Source: a virus (lineage: Duplodnaviria > Heunggongvirae > Uroviricota > Caudoviricetes). From it: a stretch of DNA of 35,636 nucleotides. The stretch lies in the IMG/VR virus record IMGVR_UViG_2718218358_000004; one strand, 5' to 3'. Shown piece by piece: positions 17,293 to 35,636 of this stretch. How positions within the stretch are numbered: the first letter of the stretch is position 1; each line of letters opens with the position of its first letter. Position numbers and translations under genes: made by a program. The notes under the pieces are model-generated. The model made no database searches. It was not told the origin of the DNA and saw only the letters and a program-made list of their open reading frames with translations.

Positions 17293-17563
17293 GTTTCAGT
17301 TCCTCAATCCGGTGTTGTCGTTGTCTCAGTAGTGCGCTGGTCTGTTCTGCGTCGGCATAGAGTCGCGCCTGCTCCCGGTTGTTGGTTTCTGTCAGAATGG
17401 ACAGGCTGATAAGCTGGCTGTTGCTCTTTGCCAGTGCCTGGCTTTTGCTCCGAAGCTCATCTGCCTGCGTGCTGATGGTCTGGCTGGCATCAGCCAGCCG
17501 CCACGTCTGCCAGCCCAGCGCCGCCAGTAATAACGCCAGCACAACCAGCAGCAACCGGTTCAT
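17135..17563 (-). CDS. lysB: i-spanin (LysB/Rz-like)
   Basis: 142-aa ORF with N-terminal TM helix and coiled-coil region. Confidence 0.7.
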   Translation of the reverse strand: MNRLLLVVLALLLAALGWQTWRLADASQTISTQADELRSKSQALAKSNSQLISLSILTETNNREQARLYADAEQTSALLRQRQHRIEELKRENEDLRRWADTPLPADIIRLRKRPAFTGGAAYRQWLSASDAVSAGSGNAAH

Positions 17564-23885: not shown

Positions 23886-24910
23886 TGGGAAAGAGTAAGA
23901 AAAACCGCGCTGCGGCGACGAATCAGCTCAAGCATAAAAGCCAGACTTCAGCCGAAGCATTCAGCTTCGGTGATCCCGTTCCTGTACTTGACCGCCGCGA
24001 ACTGCTGGACTATGTGGAATGCGTACAGACAGATCGCTGGTATGAGCCTCCTGTCAGCTTTGACGGACTGGCGCGCACCTTCCGCGCTGCCGTGCATCAC
24101 AGTTCACCAATTGCGGTGAAATGCAACATTCTGACCAGCACCTACATCCCTCACCCGCTGCTCAGCCAGCAGGCTTTTTCGCGTTTTGTACAGGACTATC
24201 TGGTTTTTGGTAACGCCTACCTGGAAAAACGCACGAACCGCTTCGGAGAGGTCATCGCTCTTGAGCCTGCGCTGGCAAAATACACCCGACGCGGGTTAGA
24301 CCTAGATACCTACTGGTTTGTGCAATACGGTATGACAACCCAGCCGTATCAGTTCACGAAAGGCAGCATCTTTCATCTGTTGGAACCGGACATCAACCAG
24401 GAGATCTACGGCCTGCCCGGTTATCTTTCTGCCATTCCGTCAGCTCTGCTCAACGAGTCCGCCACGCTGTTCCGCCGCAAGTATTACATTAACGGCAGTC
24501 ATGCAGGCTTCATCATGTACATGACCGATGCTGCGCAGAACCAGGAGGATGTGAACAACCTCCGCAATGCGATGAAAAGCGCCAAAGGACCAGGTAACTT
24601 CCGCAATCTGTTTATGTACTCGCCTAACGGCAAAAAGGACGGACTTCAGATCATCCCATTGTCAGAAGTCGCGGCGAAGGATGAGTTTCTGAATATCAAA
24701 AATGTCAGCCGCGATGACATGATGGCAGTGCATCGTGTGCCACCGCAAATGATGGGGATTATGCCGAATAATGTTGGGGGGTTTGGGGATGTGGAAAAAG
24801 CGAGTTTAGTGTTTGTGAGGAACGAATTAATACCCTTACAGAAAAGGATGCAGGAATTAAATAAATGGCTTGAAGATAATATATTACAATTCAAACCATA
24901 TAAATTTTAA
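23882..24910 (+). CDS. Q: portal protein Q
   Basis: 342-aa ORF overlapping P stop; last ~30 codons are AT-rich. Confidence 0.9.
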   Translation: MMGKSKKNRAAATNQLKHKSQTSAEAFSFGDPVPVLDRRELLDYVECVQTDRWYEPPVSFDGLARTFRAAVHHSSPIAVKCNILTSTYIPHPLLSQQAFSRFVQDYLVFGNAYLEKRTNRFGEVIALEPALAKYTRRGLDLDTYWFVQYGMTTQPYQFTKGSIFHLLEPDINQEIYGLPGYLSAIPSALLNESATLFRRKYYINGSHAGFIMYMTDAAQNQEDVNNLRNAMKSAKGPGNFRNLFMYSPNGKKDGLQIIPLSEVAAKDEFLNIKNVSRDDMMAVHRVPPQMMGIMPNNVGGFGDVEKASLVFVRNELIPLQKRMQELNKWLEDNILQFKPYKF

Positions 24911-24918
24911 CGAAAAAT

Positions 24919-24947
24919 CAGCCTTAGCGTTCATAACGTTAGGGCTG
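24919..24947. terminator. hairpin between convergent Q and RT genes (candidate bidirectional terminator)
   Basis: 13-bp stem (with two G-U pairs on the plus-strand RNA) and 3-nt loop, 24919-24947; U-run follows on the minus-strand transcript. Confidence 0.45.
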
Positions 24948-24951
24948 TTCA

Positions 24952-26898
<1,947 letters not shown>

Positions 26899-26950
26899 TC
26901 AACTTTCTGTTTTCCAGAAGTATTTTGGCTATTTTCGGTGATAGCGCGCG

Positions 26951-26969
26951 CTCGTATCCCCGCCACGCC
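26951..26969 (-). other. candidate cos (cohesive end) site
   Basis: Minus strand reads GGCGTGGCGGGGATACGAGCGCGCGC; first 13 nt match the P2/186 cohesive-end sequence as I remember it (GGCG[A/T]GGCGGGGA), followed by a GCGCGC element also recalled from P2. Confidence 0.45.
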
Positions 26970-27348
26970 TGCCCGCTTTATGCAGTGGTTTTCATGCACA
27001 TGCATGACATGAGCAAAAGCCCGCCAGTTCTGGCGGATCTGAGCAAAGACGATCCTCAATCGATCATGCGATTTCATGCAGCATAGTCATGCACTGTCAA
27101 GGAAGTGAAAATCCGTATCTGAATGGCCACTTGAAAAACGGATCATACGGGTTTACAAAGATGAATGTTCGCTGTGAACGGGAAGCGGAAGTTAACTTTC
27201 AGATAACATAATCCATATGCACGAGAACCTCTAAAATAGAATGGGACACCTAAGCGGGGTACTTACAACGATTCTTTCCATATTCACAGTTAACACTCTG
27301 TTTGGCGTATTTTTATTCAAATAGCAAACACCAATAAAAGGAGTTTCC

Positions 27349-27684
27349 ATGAACAATATTCCCCCTATACCACAGTTAGGAATTTATGTCTCAAAAATCG
27401 ATCCCACCCTACGTATCACTGTAACCGATGTTGATATTGTTGATGGTGAGGATGATTCTCCTGATGATGAATTGTTTTATTTAGTCCACTGGATCGAGGG
27501 GGAAGATGAAAGTGATATGACAGCAATGGGATTTGAGCTAGACCCAGTAGAGTGGCAGGCTTTCGTTGAATCTGAGCAATTAGTGTTTGAGCGTGATCCG
27601 TACATGGATTCAATCCCCGAAAATTCAAACTTGGCAAAGATTCGGGATTTTCTCATGAAGACTAAACAGAATGATCATTCGTAA
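27349..27684 (+). CDS. hypothetical acidic protein (orphan accessory gene)
   Basis: 111-aa ORF with strong Shine-Dalgarno (aaaggag, 7-nt spacer), AT-rich, about one quarter Asp/Glu; opposite orientation to flanking phage genes. Confidence 0.6.
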   Translation: MNNIPPIPQLGIYVSKIDPTLRITVTDVDIVDGEDDSPDDELFYLVHWIEGEDESDMTAMGFELDPVEWQAFVESEQLVFERDPYMDSIPENSNLAKIRDFLMKTKQNDHS

Positions 27685-27838
27685 GTGTAAGCATCCATCA
27701 GGAAAATGGTTTTGTAAGTGAATCATCAACTTTTAGAGAGTCTCAGACACTCCCACTTCTGCTTCTGACACAAAGCGGACGATCACTTATCAAAATAACC
27801 GCCCACCTTACGCCTTATTTCACTCATTGCCCAAACTA

Positions 27839-27868
27839 GCCCCCATCAGAATGAATCCTCCTGGGGGC
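27839..27868. terminator. possible hairpin between convergent acidic ORF and DinI-like gene
   Basis: 7-bp GC-rich stem gccccca/tgggggc with 16-nt loop; weak U-run. Confidence 0.3.
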
Positions 27869-27876
27869 AACATTTC

Positions 27877-28110
27877 TTAATGCAGCCAGCTGTCGTCCTC
27901 CCACACCTTCTGCATAATTTTCATCACTTGTTTTCTTTCTTCATCCAGTTGCAGTCCGGTTAGTTCCACACCGTTAGAGCTACCTTTGCGAATGCGAATT
28001 ACCGTTTTGGGATACAGGGGGCGCAGATTGCGGTAAAGCTCGGATTCAAGTGCGTCCAAGGTAGACTGGCTAATCTTCTGCTCTTTATCGATCATTATTT
28101 CAATGCGCAT
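27877..28110 (-). CDS. DinI-like protein
   Basis: 77 aa from MRIEIM; pattern matches E. coli DinI (MRIEV...LxxELxxR...WExxDxW) as remembered. Confidence 0.7.
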   Translation of the reverse strand: MRIEIMIDKEQKISQSTLDALESELYRNLRPLYPKTVIRIRKGSSNGVELTGLQLDEERKQVMKIMQKVWEDDSWLH

Positions 28111-28120
28111 AAAAGTCACC

Positions 28121-28309
28121 TCAGCTGATGACATCCATTGAGCGGTTGTATTCGTGGCTTCTGATTTTTGCCATGAGTTCATCAGTCAATTCAGAAACCC
28201 ACTGCAGAGCCAGCCCCTTCTCTTCATCACTACACTCACTAGCCGCTACAAGCTTAAGAAAAAAATCAATGCGCTGGAGCTTCAAAGACTCCAAAAAATA
28301 GTCCTGCAT
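28121..28309 (-). CDS. small protein, first gene of LexA-box operon (possible Tum-like antirepressor N-terminal part)
   Basis: 62-aa ORF directly downstream of a LexA box and 10 nt upstream of the DinI-like gene. Confidence 0.45.
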   Translation of the reverse strand: MQDYFLESLKLQRIDFFLKLVAASECSDEEKGLALQWVSELTDELMAKIRSHEYNRSMDVIS

Positions 28310-28351
28310 CTTTCCTCCTATGACACCAAAACAATACTGTATACATAACCA

Positions 28352-28367
28352 CTGTTTATATTTACAG
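28352..28367. promoter_or_regulatory. LexA box (SOS operator)
   Basis: CTGTTTATATTTACAG = CTGT-N8-ACAG consensus, 43 nt upstream of the 62-aa ORF start. Confidence 0.65.
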
Positions 28368-28461
28368 TATATAATAATCTTACTGATGTAAAACGTTTTT
28401 TTACGTTCATCGGCCTGATATGCCTGGTATTATTAAGAGCACGAATTGTTAACCCGCGTAA

Positions 28462-30882
28462 TTAATACAGGTTCCGCCACTTATCATCTTCCCTCAGACG
28501 CTGGTTCCGATAGAAGATACGCAGGCCTGCTCCTGACGGAATACTGCCGCCGCGAAGGAGCAAATCGACTTCTTTCTCGCTGCCATCAAATCCCCTGGAC
28601 TTCAGTTCATAGACGAGCTGCTGTCGCTGATGGTCTGTAATTCGCTGTTTGTAGTCTTTACGCCGTTTCGGTTTCACCTGGCGTAACCTTGCAGCCAGTT
28701 CCCGGCGCTCTTTTTTGCTCATACTGTGCAGGTAATCGTGCAACTCCTTGTCATTCATACGGGTAATATCCGTTCTGGAGTCCCCATCAGCTGATTTGTC
28801 TTTCCCTTGTTGGTTCAAATTTTCAGCAAGGGGACAGTTATTGCCACGAGTCCAAGGGGCGCAAGCGCCCTGGTCGGCTGCCGCCTCCTGAACGTCAACG
28901 GCCTTACGAACCATTTTCCACTTCACCGCATGAGTGCAGATCTTGCCCTCTGCAATGGGTGACCAGATGCCATAAATACGAATACCGTGATCGCCATATG
29001 CGGTCGGTTCTTCGTTGATTTCATAAGCAGTTCTGATGAGGTGATATTTGCGGGGAACCAGTACGCCGCCCTGCTTCATGATGTAGGTGGCAAAACAACC
29101 AGCATCAGCAGCAGCCAGGATTGCATCAAGGCGCGGGTTATCCAGTACCGGCGCACCTGCTTTTTTGTCACCCTGTTGCCTTGCCGCCTGACCAGCCAGC
29201 AATCGCAGTTCACGGTAAGCCTGACGCCCCGGAATGCCAAAGAAGCGGAATTGCTGAACACGATGCAGAGACGCCCAAGCATTAACGTATTCAGCGTTAT
29301 CACGCAGGGATTTACCCGTTTCCTTGCTGATCTCCCCAGCCAGACCACGCCCGTCAATGTTCTTACTGATGTATTTCGCGATATAGCTTGTTGGCGTACC
29401 TTTGCGCGGGTTTATCAGCTCAGACTTAAAGCGTGGTCCCGTGTTATTGCCCAGCTCCTCGCGGTCTTCACGGATGGCAAACTTACGCAGTAATGCAGTG
29501 ATGGCGCGGCGGTCTTTTTTACGCATGAAACACATGAGATGCCAGTGCACAGTACCGTCATGATGCGGCTCAGCTACCCGCACGCCATACCAGCGCAACT
29601 CGGCTTTATGCATAGCCTTACGAAATGCAGCAAACATGCCGACCAGATAATCGCTACTTTGTCTTACCGTCGCGTTTGTCCAGGTCGGGTTTGGTCTGCC
29701 GTTATTGAGCGTGGAATGGAAACGCGACGGACAGGTGATAGTGTAGAAAACGGCACAGTCACTGCGCATTTCCGCGATAAGCTCCAGACCTTTAACACAG
29801 GCCATCATCTCATTGCGGCGATGCGCCGGGTTGCTGCTGCTGGCGTTTACCACATCTTCCATATCCAGCGTGTCGCCGTCTTCGTTCACCAGTTCATGAG
29901 AACGAAAAAACTCCAGCGACTTACGGCGCTGCTCACGTTTATGCATCACGGCTTCATAGCTGACATAGGGGGATGCTTTTTTGCTGACCAGGCAGACAGC
30001 ACGCAACTGCTCTTCCCGCCATTCGCAACGCATCTTCCATAATTTCCGATACCACCAGTCGGCACACAACATACGCGCCAGCGAACCCGGGATGAGTTCA
30101 TAGGGCACTGGTTTGCGGCGGTTTCTTTTCCGACGAAGTTTCTCAAACGCAGGCGGGATAACATCCAGACGCAGGGTTTCCGCTGCCACCTTTTCCCATG
30201 TCTTGCGGATTTCTTCTGGCTTAACGTCATCGGTGGCATACAAATCACCACAAGCGTCCTCAAGACACATGCTCATATGCGCTGCTACCAGGGTGGACAG
30301 GCGTTTCACCTGATCCTGGCTCATTTCAGGCAGGATCAGCAGCCCCTCCAGCCCTTGATGGCTTGCCATAAAACGGAAAGAAACAGATAGCTGACTGTCA
30401 CGTACACAATCCAGTCGCTCCAGACATGGCTTAATCGTCTCACGCAAATAGCGGGAATAAGCCTTTGGCCTGCCCAGGCTGCTGAAGTATTCAATACGTT
30501 GCATCAGCGGCTTGCTGATATGGGAAGGCTGGGCGTTTACGTCCGCCAGAATGACCATGTCCGGATTAAAACGCTGCTGCTCATGCGCCAGCTTTGCCCG
30601 GCTAATGAGCTTATCCTGCTCCATTTCGCGCTGGACAGGATCACGGGATTCATTAAAGAAATAACGCTCCCAGACCTGCTCACTCAGTGCCTCGCGGCGC
30701 AGTTGTTCCTGCTCGTTATCGGCAGCGTACAGAGTGATCAGGTTTGAAAGTGCAGACTCCGGCGCAACTTCCGCCGGGTCCAGATAAGGGTTAATGGCCT
30801 TTTTCGAGCCGTTCCATGAAAATGCTGCGGCGGCCTCGTTAAAGCCGCTGCAATTGTTCATATCGTCATGACTCATACACAC
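28462..30882 (-). CDS. A: replication initiation endonuclease A (rolling-circle initiator)
   Basis: 806-aa ORF at P2 gpA position with P2 A-like size; start may be a few codons internal. Confidence 0.85.
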
Positions 30883-31730
30883 ACTCCGTACACGGCAGAA
30901 CTATCCACGCCACGCGAAGGATCAAATCCCAACCAGCAGCTCGGCCCGGAAACAGCAATGATTTCTGTTGCAGATTTACCCTCGCCAGCTGACACGCCGA
31001 TGCTGCGTTTTGCCTTGATATAGTGGTGAGTAAAATTGCGATACAGCGAACGAATCAGGGATGTGTCATTGTTAGAAACAATGACCGGATGTCCTTCTGA
31101 TGACCGATGTTCAAGAATGGATGCCAGGTGATACTGGTCATCTTCAGTGAAACCATCAGTGTGATAGCCGGAAAACGTACCGTCATACGGCGGATCGCAA
31201 TACACCACATCCTCCACCTGCAGCATCGCCAGCGTTTCATCAAAGCTCGCGCAGATAAACGTTGCCCGCTGGGCTTTCTCTGCAAATGCGCGAATTTCTT
31301 TTTCAGGGAAATACGGATTTTTATAATTACCGTAGGGAATGTTGAAATACCCGCTCTTGTTATAGCGACATAAACCACGGTAACCGTGACGATTGAGATA
31401 CAGGAAATATATCGCCTTCATGAAATCAGTAATTTCAGTTGAGTAATTAAACTCCTGTCTTATGTTGTAATAAGCCAGCTCACTGTTTGCTTCCTCAAAT
31501 AAAACTTTGGCACGAGATATAAACGCTTCGCAATCAGCGGCAATCTTTTTATAGAGGTTGATTAAATCAGGATTAATATCCGCAACCAGATAGCTGGGGT
31601 AATCCGTCGCCATCATCACAGCACAAGAACCCGCGAAAGGTTCAACCAGTCGCGGGCCAGCAGGAAGGTATTTTTTCAGTTCGGACATAATGGCGGTTTT
31701 ATTACCCGCCCATTTCAGGATGGTGCTCAT
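30873..31730 (-). CDS. dam: DNA adenine methyltransferase (Dam family)
   Basis: 285 aa from [11 protein letters not shown]; motifs [36 protein letters not shown] closely resemble E. coli Dam as remembered. Confidence 0.85.
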
Positions 31731-31954
31731 ACAGCACCTCTGTTGTAATGTTTGCCTTTCAGCTCTGCGATTTCCTGGCAGGTAATGCAAAGCTGCACTC
31801 CAGGAATGGCACGGCGGCGTGCTGGCGGAATTGGCGCTTCACACTCAACGCAAAGCACGCGGGACACGCCCGGCGTTTTGGCACGGGCAGCACGGATATG
31901 GCGTTGGCGTTCTTCTTCAACGCGCTGCTGTACGAGATCCATTGCATCAGCCAT
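31727..31954 (-). CDS. TraR/DksA-family C4 zinc-finger protein
   Basis: 75-aa ORF with CVECEAPIP...CITCQ four-Cys motif; analogous to P2 orf82. Confidence 0.7.
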   Translation of the reverse strand: MADAMDLVQQRVEEERQRHIRAARAKTPGVSRVLCVECEAPIPPARRRAIPGVQLCITCQEIAELKGKHYNRGAV

Positions 31955-33650: not shown

Positions 33651-34226
33651 GTGACCATGAATTTGGAGAAAGGCGGACGAGGCGCTATAGAGCGCATGGT
33701 AGAAGCTTATGGATTCAAGACTCGACAGGCGTTGTGCGATCATTTAGGAATCTCTAAAAGTACACTCGCCACACGCTACATGCGTGACTCATTCCCAGCA
33801 GAATGGGTAATCCAGTGCGCCCTTGAAACAGGCACCTCGCTTAATTGGCTCACAACCGGGCATGGTTCAAAGCAAACTTCAGGTAATACAAATACTATGG
33901 AAGTTGCTAAATATGTATTATCTGATGGGGCCTTGTGTGAAGACGGTTTTTATATTTTCGATAGAGAATTTCTACCGTCGGCATTCAAGAATCTTTTTGT
34001 AATCACAGATAATAATTCTGAATTTATTTGTGATAAGGAATTTGATGATATACGTGATGGTAAATGGGTAATAAGTATTGATGGCGAAATAACGATCCGT
34101 GACATTACTCGTTTACCCGGTGGAAGAATCTTCGTCGAGGGTGGAAACAGAGCCTTCGAGTGCAAGATAGAAGATGTTGAAATAATTGGGAAAATTATAA
34201 GTTTAACAATTAAGTACGTTAGGTAA
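33651..34226 (+). CDS. cI: CI immunity repressor (186 type)
   Basis: 191-aa ORF; N-terminal HTH (EAYGF...CALETG..L.WL.TG) and length match 186 CI as remembered. Confidence 0.75.
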   Translation: MTMNLEKGGRGAIERMVEAYGFKTRQALCDHLGISKSTLATRYMRDSFPAEWVIQCALETGTSLNWLTTGHGSKQTSGNTNTMEVAKYVLSDGALCEDGFYIFDREFLPSAFKNLFVITDNNSEFICDKEFDDIRDGKWVISIDGEITIRDITRLPGGRIFVEGGNRAFECKIEDVEIIGKIISLTIKYVR

Positions 34227-34241
34227 TACCGGGAGGAAACT

Positions 34242-34433
34242 ATGCTTGGTAAGGTATTTTTTGTGGTTTTATCATGCTCTTTGTTATTAAACCCACTAAC
34301 TACCTATGCTAAAAATTATCCTTGTTCTGGGAAAAAGGGAGGTGTCTCTCACTGTACCTCCGATGGAAAGTTCGTTTGCAATGATGGAACTATTAGTAAA
34401 TCAAAAAAAATCTGTACTAAAAACTCGCGATAA
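34242..34433 (+). CDS. small secreted cysteine-rich protein (orphan accessory gene)
   Basis: 63-aa ORF with strong SD (gggagg), N-terminal signal peptide, four Cys in the ~40-aa mature part, AT-rich. Confidence 0.5.
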
Positions 34434-34619
34434 ATTTTGCTTTTATATCTGCGCCTAATATAACAATGAGCCGCAGGCTAACCGCAAAAGTCACATACTC
34501 ACATAGCAAAAAATAGCTAACTTCATTATGGCTTCAGTGAGATGTATGGTCGCAGGATTTCATACATTGACACTGGTTATACATACAGTAAAAATGCTCT
34601 CTACTGGAGGGCATTTTTT

Positions 34620-35636
34620 ATGGCAGTACGAAAACTCACCACAGGAAAATGGCTTTGCGAATGTTACCCCGCCGGACGTAGTGGACGTCGTGTGCGTAAA
34701 CAATTCGCCACCAAAGGCGAAGCTCTGGCTTTTGAGCGTCACACGATGGAAGAAACCGAAGCAAAGCCCTGGCTGGGCGAATCAGTGGATCGTCGGACAT
34801 TGAAAGACGTGATTGAGCTATGGTTCAAACTACATGGTAAATCTCTGACAGCTGGGCAGCATGTCTATGACAAACTGCTGTTGATGGTTGACGCTCTGGG
34901 CAATCCCCTTGCAACTGATCTAACCTCTAAAATGTTTGCCCACTATCGAGATAAACGCCTGACAGGTGAGATCTACTTCAGCGAGAAATGGAAGAAAGGA
35001 GCAAGCCCGGTCACCATTAACCTGGAGCAAAGCTATCTAAGTAGTGTTTTTAGCGAACTATCCCGCCTGGGCGAATGGTCGTATCCGAACCCACTGGAGA
35101 ACATGCGAAAATTCACCATCGCAGAAAAAGAGATGGCATGGCTTACCCATGAGCAGATTGTTGAACTGCTGGCTGATTGCAAACGTCAGGACCCAATTCT
35201 GGCACTGGTAGTCAAGATATGCCTAAGCACAGGCGCACGCTGGCGAGAAGCAATAAATCTTACCCGCTCGCAAGTGACCAAATACCGAATTACCTTTGTA
35301 AGAACGAAGGGGAAGAAAAACAGAAGCATCCCTATCAGTAAAGAGCTTTACGAAGAGATCATGGCGCTTGATGGGTTCAATTTCTTTACAGACTGCTATT
35401 TTCAATTTTTATCCGTGATGGAAAAAACGTCTATCGTGCTCCCTCGCGGTCAACTGACACACGTTCTGCGCCATACGTTTGCGGCGCACTTCATGATGTC
35501 GGGTGGAAATATCCTTGCTTTGCAAAAAATCCTCGGACATCACGATATAAAAATGACTATGCGCTATGCCCATTTAGCACCCGATCATCTTGAGACGGCT
35601 CTGAGATTCAACCCCCTCGCAACGCTAGAAGTGTGA
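34620..35636 (+). CDS. int: tyrosine integrase (P2 Int family)
   Basis: 338 aa from MAVRKL; C-terminal R...HxxR...Y catalytic pattern (LTHVLRHTFA...MRYAHL); ends at the last base of the window. Confidence 0.85.
   Translation: MAVRKLTTGKWLCECYPAGRSGRRVRKQFATKGEALAFERHTMEETEAKPWLGESVDRRTLKDVIELWFKLHGKSLTAGQHVYDKLLLMVDALGNPLATDLTSKMFAHYRDKRLTGEIYFSEKWKKGASPVTINLEQSYLSSVFSELSRLGEWSYPNPLENMRKFTIAEKEMAWLTHEQIVELLADCKRQDPILALVVKICLSTGARWREAINLTRSQVTKYRITFVRTKGKKNRSIPISKELYEEIMALDGFNFFTDCYFQFLSVMEKTSIVLPRGQLTHVLRHTFAAHFMMSGGNILALQKILGHHDIKMTMRYAHLAPDHLETALRFNPLATLEV

Follow-up and report, generated by a model that had tools for sequence, protein, structure and literature searches.

A probable SOS-induction operon of a 186/Fels-2-type P2-like prophage, with antirepressor and DinI homologue encoded by separate genes

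Results

The DNA analysed here (hereafter the window) is a stretch of 35,636 nucleotides from a Caudoviricetes virus record, IMG/VR IMGVR_UViG_2718218358_000004. Reading the minus strand from 27600 to 28700, together with the list of open reading frames, gave the following order 3′ of gene A: a LexA box, a 62-aa ORF, a 10-nt gap and a 77-aa ORF of the DinI family. Replication gene A (gpA; 28462-30882, minus strand) was recognised by its match to Phage_GPA (E 3.6e-127), and the 62-aa ORF starts 152 nt downstream of it. Including its stop codon, the 62-aa ORF occupies positions 28121..28309 on the minus strand. Its Shine-Dalgarno sequence, AGGAGG (28314..28319, minus strand), was read directly from the sequence and is kept in relatives. 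The 77-aa ORF occupies 27877..28110 on the same strand, stop codon included, and its Shine-Dalgarno sequence, GAGGTG (28117..28122, minus strand), partly coincides with the first gene's stop codon. The CTGT-N8-ACAG palindrome at 28352-28367 forms the core of the LexA box. The box, the two ORFs and the gap between them all lie where a first-pass annotation of this DNA, made from the sequence alone, had placed them. We refer to the two genes as tumA and tumB. The prophage in the window is P2-like, and also encodes CII, a CI of the 186 type and an integrase. The position of tum immediately after gene A is common to the window, 186, PSP3, Fels-2 and others.

Homology to Fels-2-like phages ends just past the tumB stop codon, at a GC-rich hairpin with a 7-bp GC stem (27839..27868, minus strand). 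This hairpin, which lies where 186 has t95a, is tentatively a weak terminator; it folds no better than shuffled sequences (z -1.27) and has a poor T-run. The site downstream of the tum operon is a variable cargo site of P2-like phages. In the window the cargo includes a 111-aa DUF8087 ORF on the opposite strand and, at the position of orf97, a reverse transcriptase matched by the PADLOC models for RT-Toprim type I-C retrons (E 2.4e-217). A search of 24800-28600 against Rfam at E ≤0.1 returned nothing, and no retron msr/msd family was detected. A comparison with 186 Orf97 had been proposed in the first-pass annotation. When 186 Orf97 and Fels-2 STM2726 were compared with the window by tblastn, nothing better than E 0.31 was obtained, and the window therefore has no Orf97 homologue.

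The 77-aa protein is a member of the DinI family. It matched Pfam PF06183 over the full 63-position model (E 6.6e-23; 81.3 bits against a cut-off of 24.2) and also matched phrog_189, and it aligned with the E. coli DinI structure 1GHH over residues 1-75 (E 2.7e-6). Alignment with 186 Tum, the comparison that had been suggested at the outset, was ungapped over Tum residues 71-145, with 41% identity (E 3e-24), so that the protein corresponds to the C-terminal half of Tum. The acidic C-terminal helix of the protein (EERKQ...WEDDSW) was aligned to that of DinI. On the strength of its family membership and this helix, TumB is predicted to bind RecA filaments and to modulate their co-protease activity.

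As had been noted, the DinI frame continues without a stop as far upstream as an ATG at 28182, giving an ORF of 101 aa. We rejected this longer reading. In relatives the extension is open for 102, 91 or 81 codons and its sequence is unrelated. Since the extension is not conserved, the start of tumB is the ATG at 28110 (MRIEIM...).

The 62-aa protein is a member of phrog_698 (E 5.9e-38 with PHROG profiles). The N-terminal 70 residues of 186 Tum match the same profile at colinear positions (E 5.9e-6), and two further profiles, phrog_8554 and phrog_1993, are matched by both the 62-aa protein and the N-terminal half of Tum. When an alignment of six TumA sequences was compared with Tum using hhalign, residues 3-43 were placed on residues 3-43 (E 6e-5, probability 65%). 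BLASTP gave no alignment of the 62-aa protein with either 186 Tum or PSP3 TumA, and the homology to Tum therefore had to come from the PHROG profiles and hhalign. The 62-aa protein had no match in Pfam, PADLOC or the PDB sequence set. A phmmer search of 1.84 billion representative proteins yielded 67 matches, nearly all of them free-standing proteins of 35-100 aa; none was clearly fused to DinI, and none provided a bridge to the fused form found in 186. It appears that the 62-aa protein shares distant homology with the N-terminal half of 186 Tum, at the profile level only and with moderate statistics, and that the window holds both halves of Tum as separate genes. The earlier description of Tum as a DinI-related protein applies to its C-terminal half but not to the remainder.

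A published counterpart of the first gene was found in E. coli HS. There, the product of ECHS_RS04495, the tum gene of DuoHS, has 100% identity to the 62-aa protein; this gene is 189 nt long and lies upstream of a DinI-like gene (ECHS_RS04500). In the Phollow study of DuoHS, delta-tum and lexA(Ind-) each abolished lysis by mitomycin C (PMC12055606). Lemire et al. (2011) described Tum as an antirepressor fused to a DinI-like half, and reported that tum is split by a stop codon in Fels-2 and PSP3, with antirepressor activity in the upstream PSP3 gene according to a personal communication (PMC3121763). The PSP3 record names the two genes tumA ('UV induction of prophage') and tumB, and its annotation equates them with the 5′ and 3′ halves of 186 tum. 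Expression of the Fels-2 operon, STM2726-2727-2728, rose 5.5- to 14.8-fold upon treatment with the mutagen MX (PMC2225428). Together with the lexA(Ind-) phenotype of DuoHS, this lends indirect support to LexA binding and damage-inducible transcription in the window.

The first-pass annotation had left three readings of the two adjacent frames side by side: two genuine genes, a single gene broken by a frameshift, or a sequencing artefact. A single 186-like tum, broken by a frameshift or nonsense mutation so that one or both ORFs are non-functional remnants, would account for the sizes of the two ORFs, as 62 and 77 aa together approach the 146 aa of 186 Tum, and for their lying in adjacent frames only 10 nt apart. 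Comparison with relatives makes such a history extremely improbable. The tumA stop falls at the same codon position in all relatives, but is variously TGA, TAA or TAG. The spacer between the genes is 10, 11 or 12 nt long, so that the frame relation of the two genes differs among lineages, yet no relative has lost the purine-rich ribosome-binding site or the MRIEIM start of the second gene. Substitutions in both ORFs are mostly at the third codon position; relative to SEN8, for example, those at codon positions 1/2/3 number 7/3/20 in one ORF and 10/6/22 in the other. This bias is at odds with decay, and both ORFs are under purifying selection. In addition, the linker of 186 Tum (about residues 47-70) is simply missing here, the ESSI-2-like phages have a LexA box and a TumA-like gene without any DinI gene, and deletion of the identical 62-aa gene in DuoHS has a clear phenotype.

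The probability that the split is a sequencing or assembly artefact within 28110-28190 is negligible. Nothing more than the adjacency of the two frames speaks for it, whereas many independent complete E. coli genomes, E. coli W among them, contain the 1171-nt stretch 27300-28470 at 100% identity. Of 5426 complete E. coli genomes searched with this stretch, 1161 gave a match, and a sequence search found the module in 56 phage records. The same two CDS are annotated in Fels-2, SEN8, SopEphi, Klebsiella and Yersinia phages, and E. coli HS. The conserved stops and ribosome-binding sites, the distribution of substitutions and the literature on Fels-2 and PSP3 therefore indicate that tumA and tumB form a genuine two-gene operon, and that neither a frameshift nor an artefact has to be invoked.

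A 6-bp hairpin spanning the end of tumA and the ribosome-binding site of tumB, with the tumA stop codon inside it, was considered as a translational-coupling structure. It is not conserved in the SEN8, SopEphi, Klebsiella and Yersinia relatives, and was rejected.

We also considered whether the DinI-like protein could itself drive induction, with the 62-aa ORF acting as a leader or accessory peptide. The phenotype of delta-tum in DuoHS would then be a polar effect on the DinI-like gene, which is conceivable in principle, and translational coupling is possible given the 10-nt gap and the overlap of the second ribosome-binding site with the first stop codon. However, the DuoHS deletion is an in-frame fusion of the start codon to the stop codon (PMC12055606). 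In Gifsy prophages, non-polar deletions of dinI left induction unchanged (PMC3121763), so TumB is probably not needed for induction. The antirepressor activity reported for PSP3 lies in the upstream gene, and the ESSI-2-like phages do without a DinI gene altogether. Finally, TumA diverges strongly among the 186, PSP3 and Fels-2 lineages whereas TumB is well conserved; this divergence, in step with that of CI, is the pattern expected if TumA is the specificity partner of CI. Induction driven by the DinI-like protein is thus very unlikely, and the antirepressor is the small upstream ORF.

The first-pass annotation had described one LexA box, at 28352-28367. That box is present, and the operator contains a second box overlapping it. 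Box 1, distal to the genes (TACTGTAAATATAAACAGTG; 28350..28369, minus strand), agrees with the 20-mer consensus at 17 of 20 positions and is found at the same position in eight of eight relatives. Box 2, the proximal one (CAGTGGTTATGTATACAGTA; 28335..28354, minus strand), agrees at 15 of 20 positions, and the 16-mer cores of the two boxes have 1 nt in common. The bare 16-mer pattern CTGT-N8-ACAG occurs twice in the window against 0.48 expected, and since 8 of 100 shuffles also reach two, this pattern alone is not significant. The other occurrence (17389-17404), whose spacer is GC-rich and whose score against the 20-mer consensus falls short of 14/20, was taken as a chance match. Scores for the full 20-mer were compared with 300 first-order Markov simulations of the window. 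Sites scoring at least 15/20 arose at a mean of 0.01 per window, a score of 17/20 was seen in none of the 300 simulations, and neither were two sites of at least 15/20 spaced 15 nt apart. The operator is therefore far beyond chance.

The arrangement of promoter elements resembles that of 186 p95. In the 186 record, p95 has the -35 sequence TTCACA, an 18-nt spacer and the -10 sequence TACTGT, which forms the first six bases of the LexA site. In the window a putative -35 sequence, TTTACA (28387..28392, minus strand), is followed after 17 nt by a putative -10 sequence, TACTGT (28364..28369, minus strand), which lies inside LexA box 1 and is the same hexamer as the annotated -10 of p95. The -35 sequence is kept as TTTACA or TTCACA in Fels-2, SEN8, SopEphi, Kp phi4.1, Yp MLG42 and ESSI2_ev015. 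A generic scan for promoters and terminators found no sigma-70 promoter at tum, because TACTGT is a weak -10 sequence. By analogy with 186, we infer that tum is transcribed from a p95-like promoter.

The two boxes differ in how widely they are conserved. In box 1 the CTGT and ACAG half-sites are invariant and the spacer is variable throughout the eight relatives, even where the identity of TumA is no more than 39-45%. In box 2, conservation of GTGG/GTAG-N8-ACAG, again around a spacer that varies, is confined to the Fels-2-like group. When 48 nt spanning the two boxes were used as a query, hundreds of plasmids were matched, of which many are small and mobilizable; the matches in pColR and pPCP1 lie immediately 5′ of the genes for colicin R and pesticin. 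Over 47-48 nt, the tum operator shares 85-88% of its sequence with those of colicin R (cra) and pesticin (pst), and on account of this likeness it is read here as a colicin-type double operator, both boxes of which would be occupied by LexA.

Alternatively, box 1 might be the only functional LexA site. Box 2 would then be conserved for some other reason, for example as the 5′ end of the transcript, and the likeness to colicin operators would be convergent or incidental. The left half of box 2 is indeed GTGG (GTAG in SEN8) instead of CTGT, its score of 15/20 is modest, and a single box is enough for 186, PSP3 and the ESSI-2-like phages. Conserved half-sites around a varying spacer are, however, the pattern expected of a LexA site. 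Colicin operators consist of two overlapping boxes with reported binding of two LexA dimers (PMC2994835), and their proximal boxes are similarly weak by the published heterology index (about 11). We regard a single functional box as unlikely, though by no means negligible, and favour the double operator.

The presumed target of TumA is the immunity repressor encoded by cI (33651..34226, plus strand). It has the same two-domain architecture as 186 CI, Phage_CI_repr followed by Phage_CI_C, and is 32% identical to it (E 1e-37). Peptidase_S24 stayed below threshold in this protein (16.7 versus 23.3 bits). A CI of the 186 type without a significant S24 domain is consistent with induction by an antirepressor, and not by repressor cleavage. 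According to papers citing Shearwin et al. (1998), 186 Tum was shown biochemically to bind CI and to prevent its binding to the operator.

When the whole window was scanned for LexA-like 20-mers, one more site was found besides the tum boxes. This site, CACTGGTTATACATACAGTA, lies at 34571-34590 and scores 16/20; its half-sites are kept and its spacer varies in three other phages. The same sequence falls within the spacer of a near-consensus promoter, TTGACA-N16-TAAAAT (34567-34595), about 30 nt upstream of the likely start of int.

Discussion

The anatomy of this locus, its homologies, its conservation and its identity to published genes lead us to identify the module, with a probability of about 0.9, as the SOS-induction operon of a 186/Fels-2-type P2-like prophage, encoding a TumA antirepressor and a TumB homologue of DinI. 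The first-pass annotation had already recognised a 186 tum-like SOS module, and this reading is borne out by the relationship of the two ORFs to the two halves of Tum and by the p95-like layout. The module is already known, and genetic tests of a near-identical form have been made in E. coli HS. Though real, it is ordinary, and no new biology comes from the tum-dinI module itself.

A mechanism can be proposed in which the biochemical steps are taken from 186. In the lysogen, LexA would sit on the overlapping pair of SOS boxes, covering the -10 sequence and start site of the p95-like promoter, and the operon would be silent. DNA damage would activate RecA, LexA would cleave itself, and both genes would be transcribed. 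TumA (62 aa) would then inactivate the non-cleavable CI, presumably by direct binding, so that the early lytic promoter is derepressed and excision and replication follow. TumB (77 aa) would most likely bind RecA filaments and tune the strength or duration of the SOS signal.

For the prophage itself, which over the stretch compared is the same as one in E. coli W, these findings mean that it should be SOS-inducible through an antirepressor and not through repressor cleavage. They also bear on annotation. The correct names of the genes are tumA (antirepressor) and tumB (DinI homologue), whereas databases mostly call them 'hypothetical protein' or, wrongly, 'levan regulatory protein'.

The double operator on tum and the LexA-like site at int raise the possibility that prophages of the Fels-2/DuoHS lineage have a two-part SOS regulon of their own, composed of a double LexA operator on tum and a LexA-repressed int promoter. 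We put this forward tentatively, judging its chances to be a little short of even. If it is right, the double operator would make induction of tum very tight, late and possibly bimodal. The int promoter would supply integrase for excision only upon DNA damage, where a moron uncouples int from cI. In the literature searched we found no description of a double LexA operator on tum or of a LexA-controlled int promoter. Both would be modest refinements, and might explain differences in induction threshold among 186-like phages.

Among related known systems are the operators of the colicin and pesticin genes, which match the tum operator nearly base for base (TACTGTA.ATA.AA.CAGTGGTT.T.T.TACAGTATT). 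They differ in that they control bacteriocin and lysis genes of small plasmids and not a phage antirepressor, and in that the -35 sequence of the plasmid promoters is TTGACA, whereas that of the tum promoter is TTTACA. The dinI-gfoA and dinI-gftA operons of the Gifsy phages are likewise LexA-controlled and likewise combine a small antirepressor with a DinI homologue (PMC3121763). In these lambdoid phages, however, dinI comes first, the opposite order of genes, and neither the antirepressor nor the repressor belongs to a related family.

Phage 186 shares with the window a -10 sequence TACTGT inside the LexA box, antirepressor and DinI content, the same type of CI and the site after gene A. It differs in having both halves fused in one 146-aa ORF, where the window has two separate genes like Fels-2, PSP3 and DuoHS, and in having a single LexA box and an orf97, where the window has two boxes and no orf97 homologue. 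The 186 tum ORF contains several in-frame internal starts, and the last of these gives a GTG-initiated product of 77 aa that is annotated as 'truncated Tum - modulates SOS induction'. PSP3 has the same split architecture at the same position, with a LexA box, but its TumA is only about 15% identical to the 62-aa protein, it has a single LexA box, and the gap between its genes is 3 nt.

Fels-2 (STM2728 and STM2726.1) is much closer, with 96.6% DNA identity, CDS of 189 and 234 nt, a 10-nt gap and both LexA boxes; there are two amino-acid differences in TumA, and Fels-2 has a further downstream gene of 243 aa that is absent from the window. DuoHS differs from the window at two bases of the box 2 spacer and in its downstream cargo, which consists of hypothetical proteins where the window has the DUF8087 ORF and the retron reverse transcriptase. 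Over the promoter, the operator and both genes, DuoHS and the window are 97% identical in DNA sequence, with identical copies of box 1, and the module occupies the same site after gene A.

Predicted LexA operators at tum and upstream of int

The first-pass annotation had proposed one LexA box in front of the tum operon, which consists of tumA, encoding a 62-aa Tum-type antirepressor, and the DinI-like gene tumB. That box is retained, but it does not stand alone, as a second predicted LexA box (28335-28354, minus strand) overlaps it. From their sequences, the two overlapping boxes are predicted to be a double operator of the colicin or pesticin type. Outside tum, the motif CTGT-N8-ACAG occurs only once more in the window, at 17389-17404 (CTGTCAGAATGGACAG). 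With a GC-rich spacer and fewer than 14 of 20 positions matching the 20-mer consensus, this occurrence is probably a chance match rather than a LexA site.

A third LexA-like box, CACTGGTTATACATACAGTA, matches the 20-mer consensus at 16 of 20 positions. The promoter in whose spacer it lies, TTGACA-N16-TAAAAT, is close to consensus (box and surrounding promoter, 34567-34595, plus strand). The promoter is approximately 30 nt upstream of the probable start of int, an ATG at 34621 (plus strand) that is accompanied by the ribosome-binding site GGAGGG and gives the N-terminus MAVRKL.... Three other phages, 4LV2017 and KP12 of Klebsiella and 813R9 of E. coli, keep the CTGG-N8-ACAG of the box upstream of int, the spacer being variable. 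The promoter with its LexA-like box is a candidate for SOS control of the integrase gene. Inserted between cI and int is a 63-aa ORF (34242-34433, plus strand) whose product has several cysteines and an N-terminus resembling a signal peptide; the ORF is likely to be a moron through which int has become uncoupled from the cI transcript.

Retron and cargo genes

A 646-aa ORF on the minus strand (24952-26892) encodes a reverse transcriptase (RVT_1, E 3.1e-31), and matches the PADLOC models for RT-Toprim type I-C retrons with E 2.4e-217. Because this match begins only at about residue 61, the true start is probably some 60 codons 3′ of the first ATG of the ORF. The msr/msd RNA of the retron was not located, and Rfam gave no matches in 24800-28600 at E 0.1 or better. 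The SopEphi record contains the wording 'DinI-like protein in retron EC67', and therefore suggests that the neighbourhood in the window is the same as that of the classical Ec67 retron prophage. A gene for a D12-class Dam methyltransferase (E 3.3e-75; 30873-31790, minus strand) extends into the beginning of gene A; the Fels-2 record compares its counterpart to 'retron EC67 DNA adenine methylase'.

The opposite strand carries a 111-aa ORF (27349-27684, plus strand; phrog_17127, E 2e-70) in the interval separating the tum operon from the retron; RefSeq lists its product as a DUF8087 domain protein. Of the 1161 E. coli genomes matching the 1171-nt query (27300-28470), only 131 contain this ORF together with the query in full.

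Occurrence and architecture of tum

The E. coli W chromosome (NC_017635, 968379-969549) carries region 27300-28470 with 100% identity, as do several further complete genomes, two of them labelled DH5alpha. Some database records name tumA homologues 'levan regulatory (domain) protein'; a Pfam search of the 62-aa product returned no matches backing this name, which looks like a propagated misannotation.

In ESSI-2-like phages (Quadragintavirus, Seongnamvirus; L007, 653-913, and L008, 671-925), a LexA box accompanies a TumA-like gene whose product is 39-45% identical, but a DinI gene is absent. Unlike the window, neither they nor 186 and PSP3 have a double tum operator. The ESSI-2-like layout is a third architecture, beside the fused tum of 186 and the split tum of Fels-2 and PSP3.
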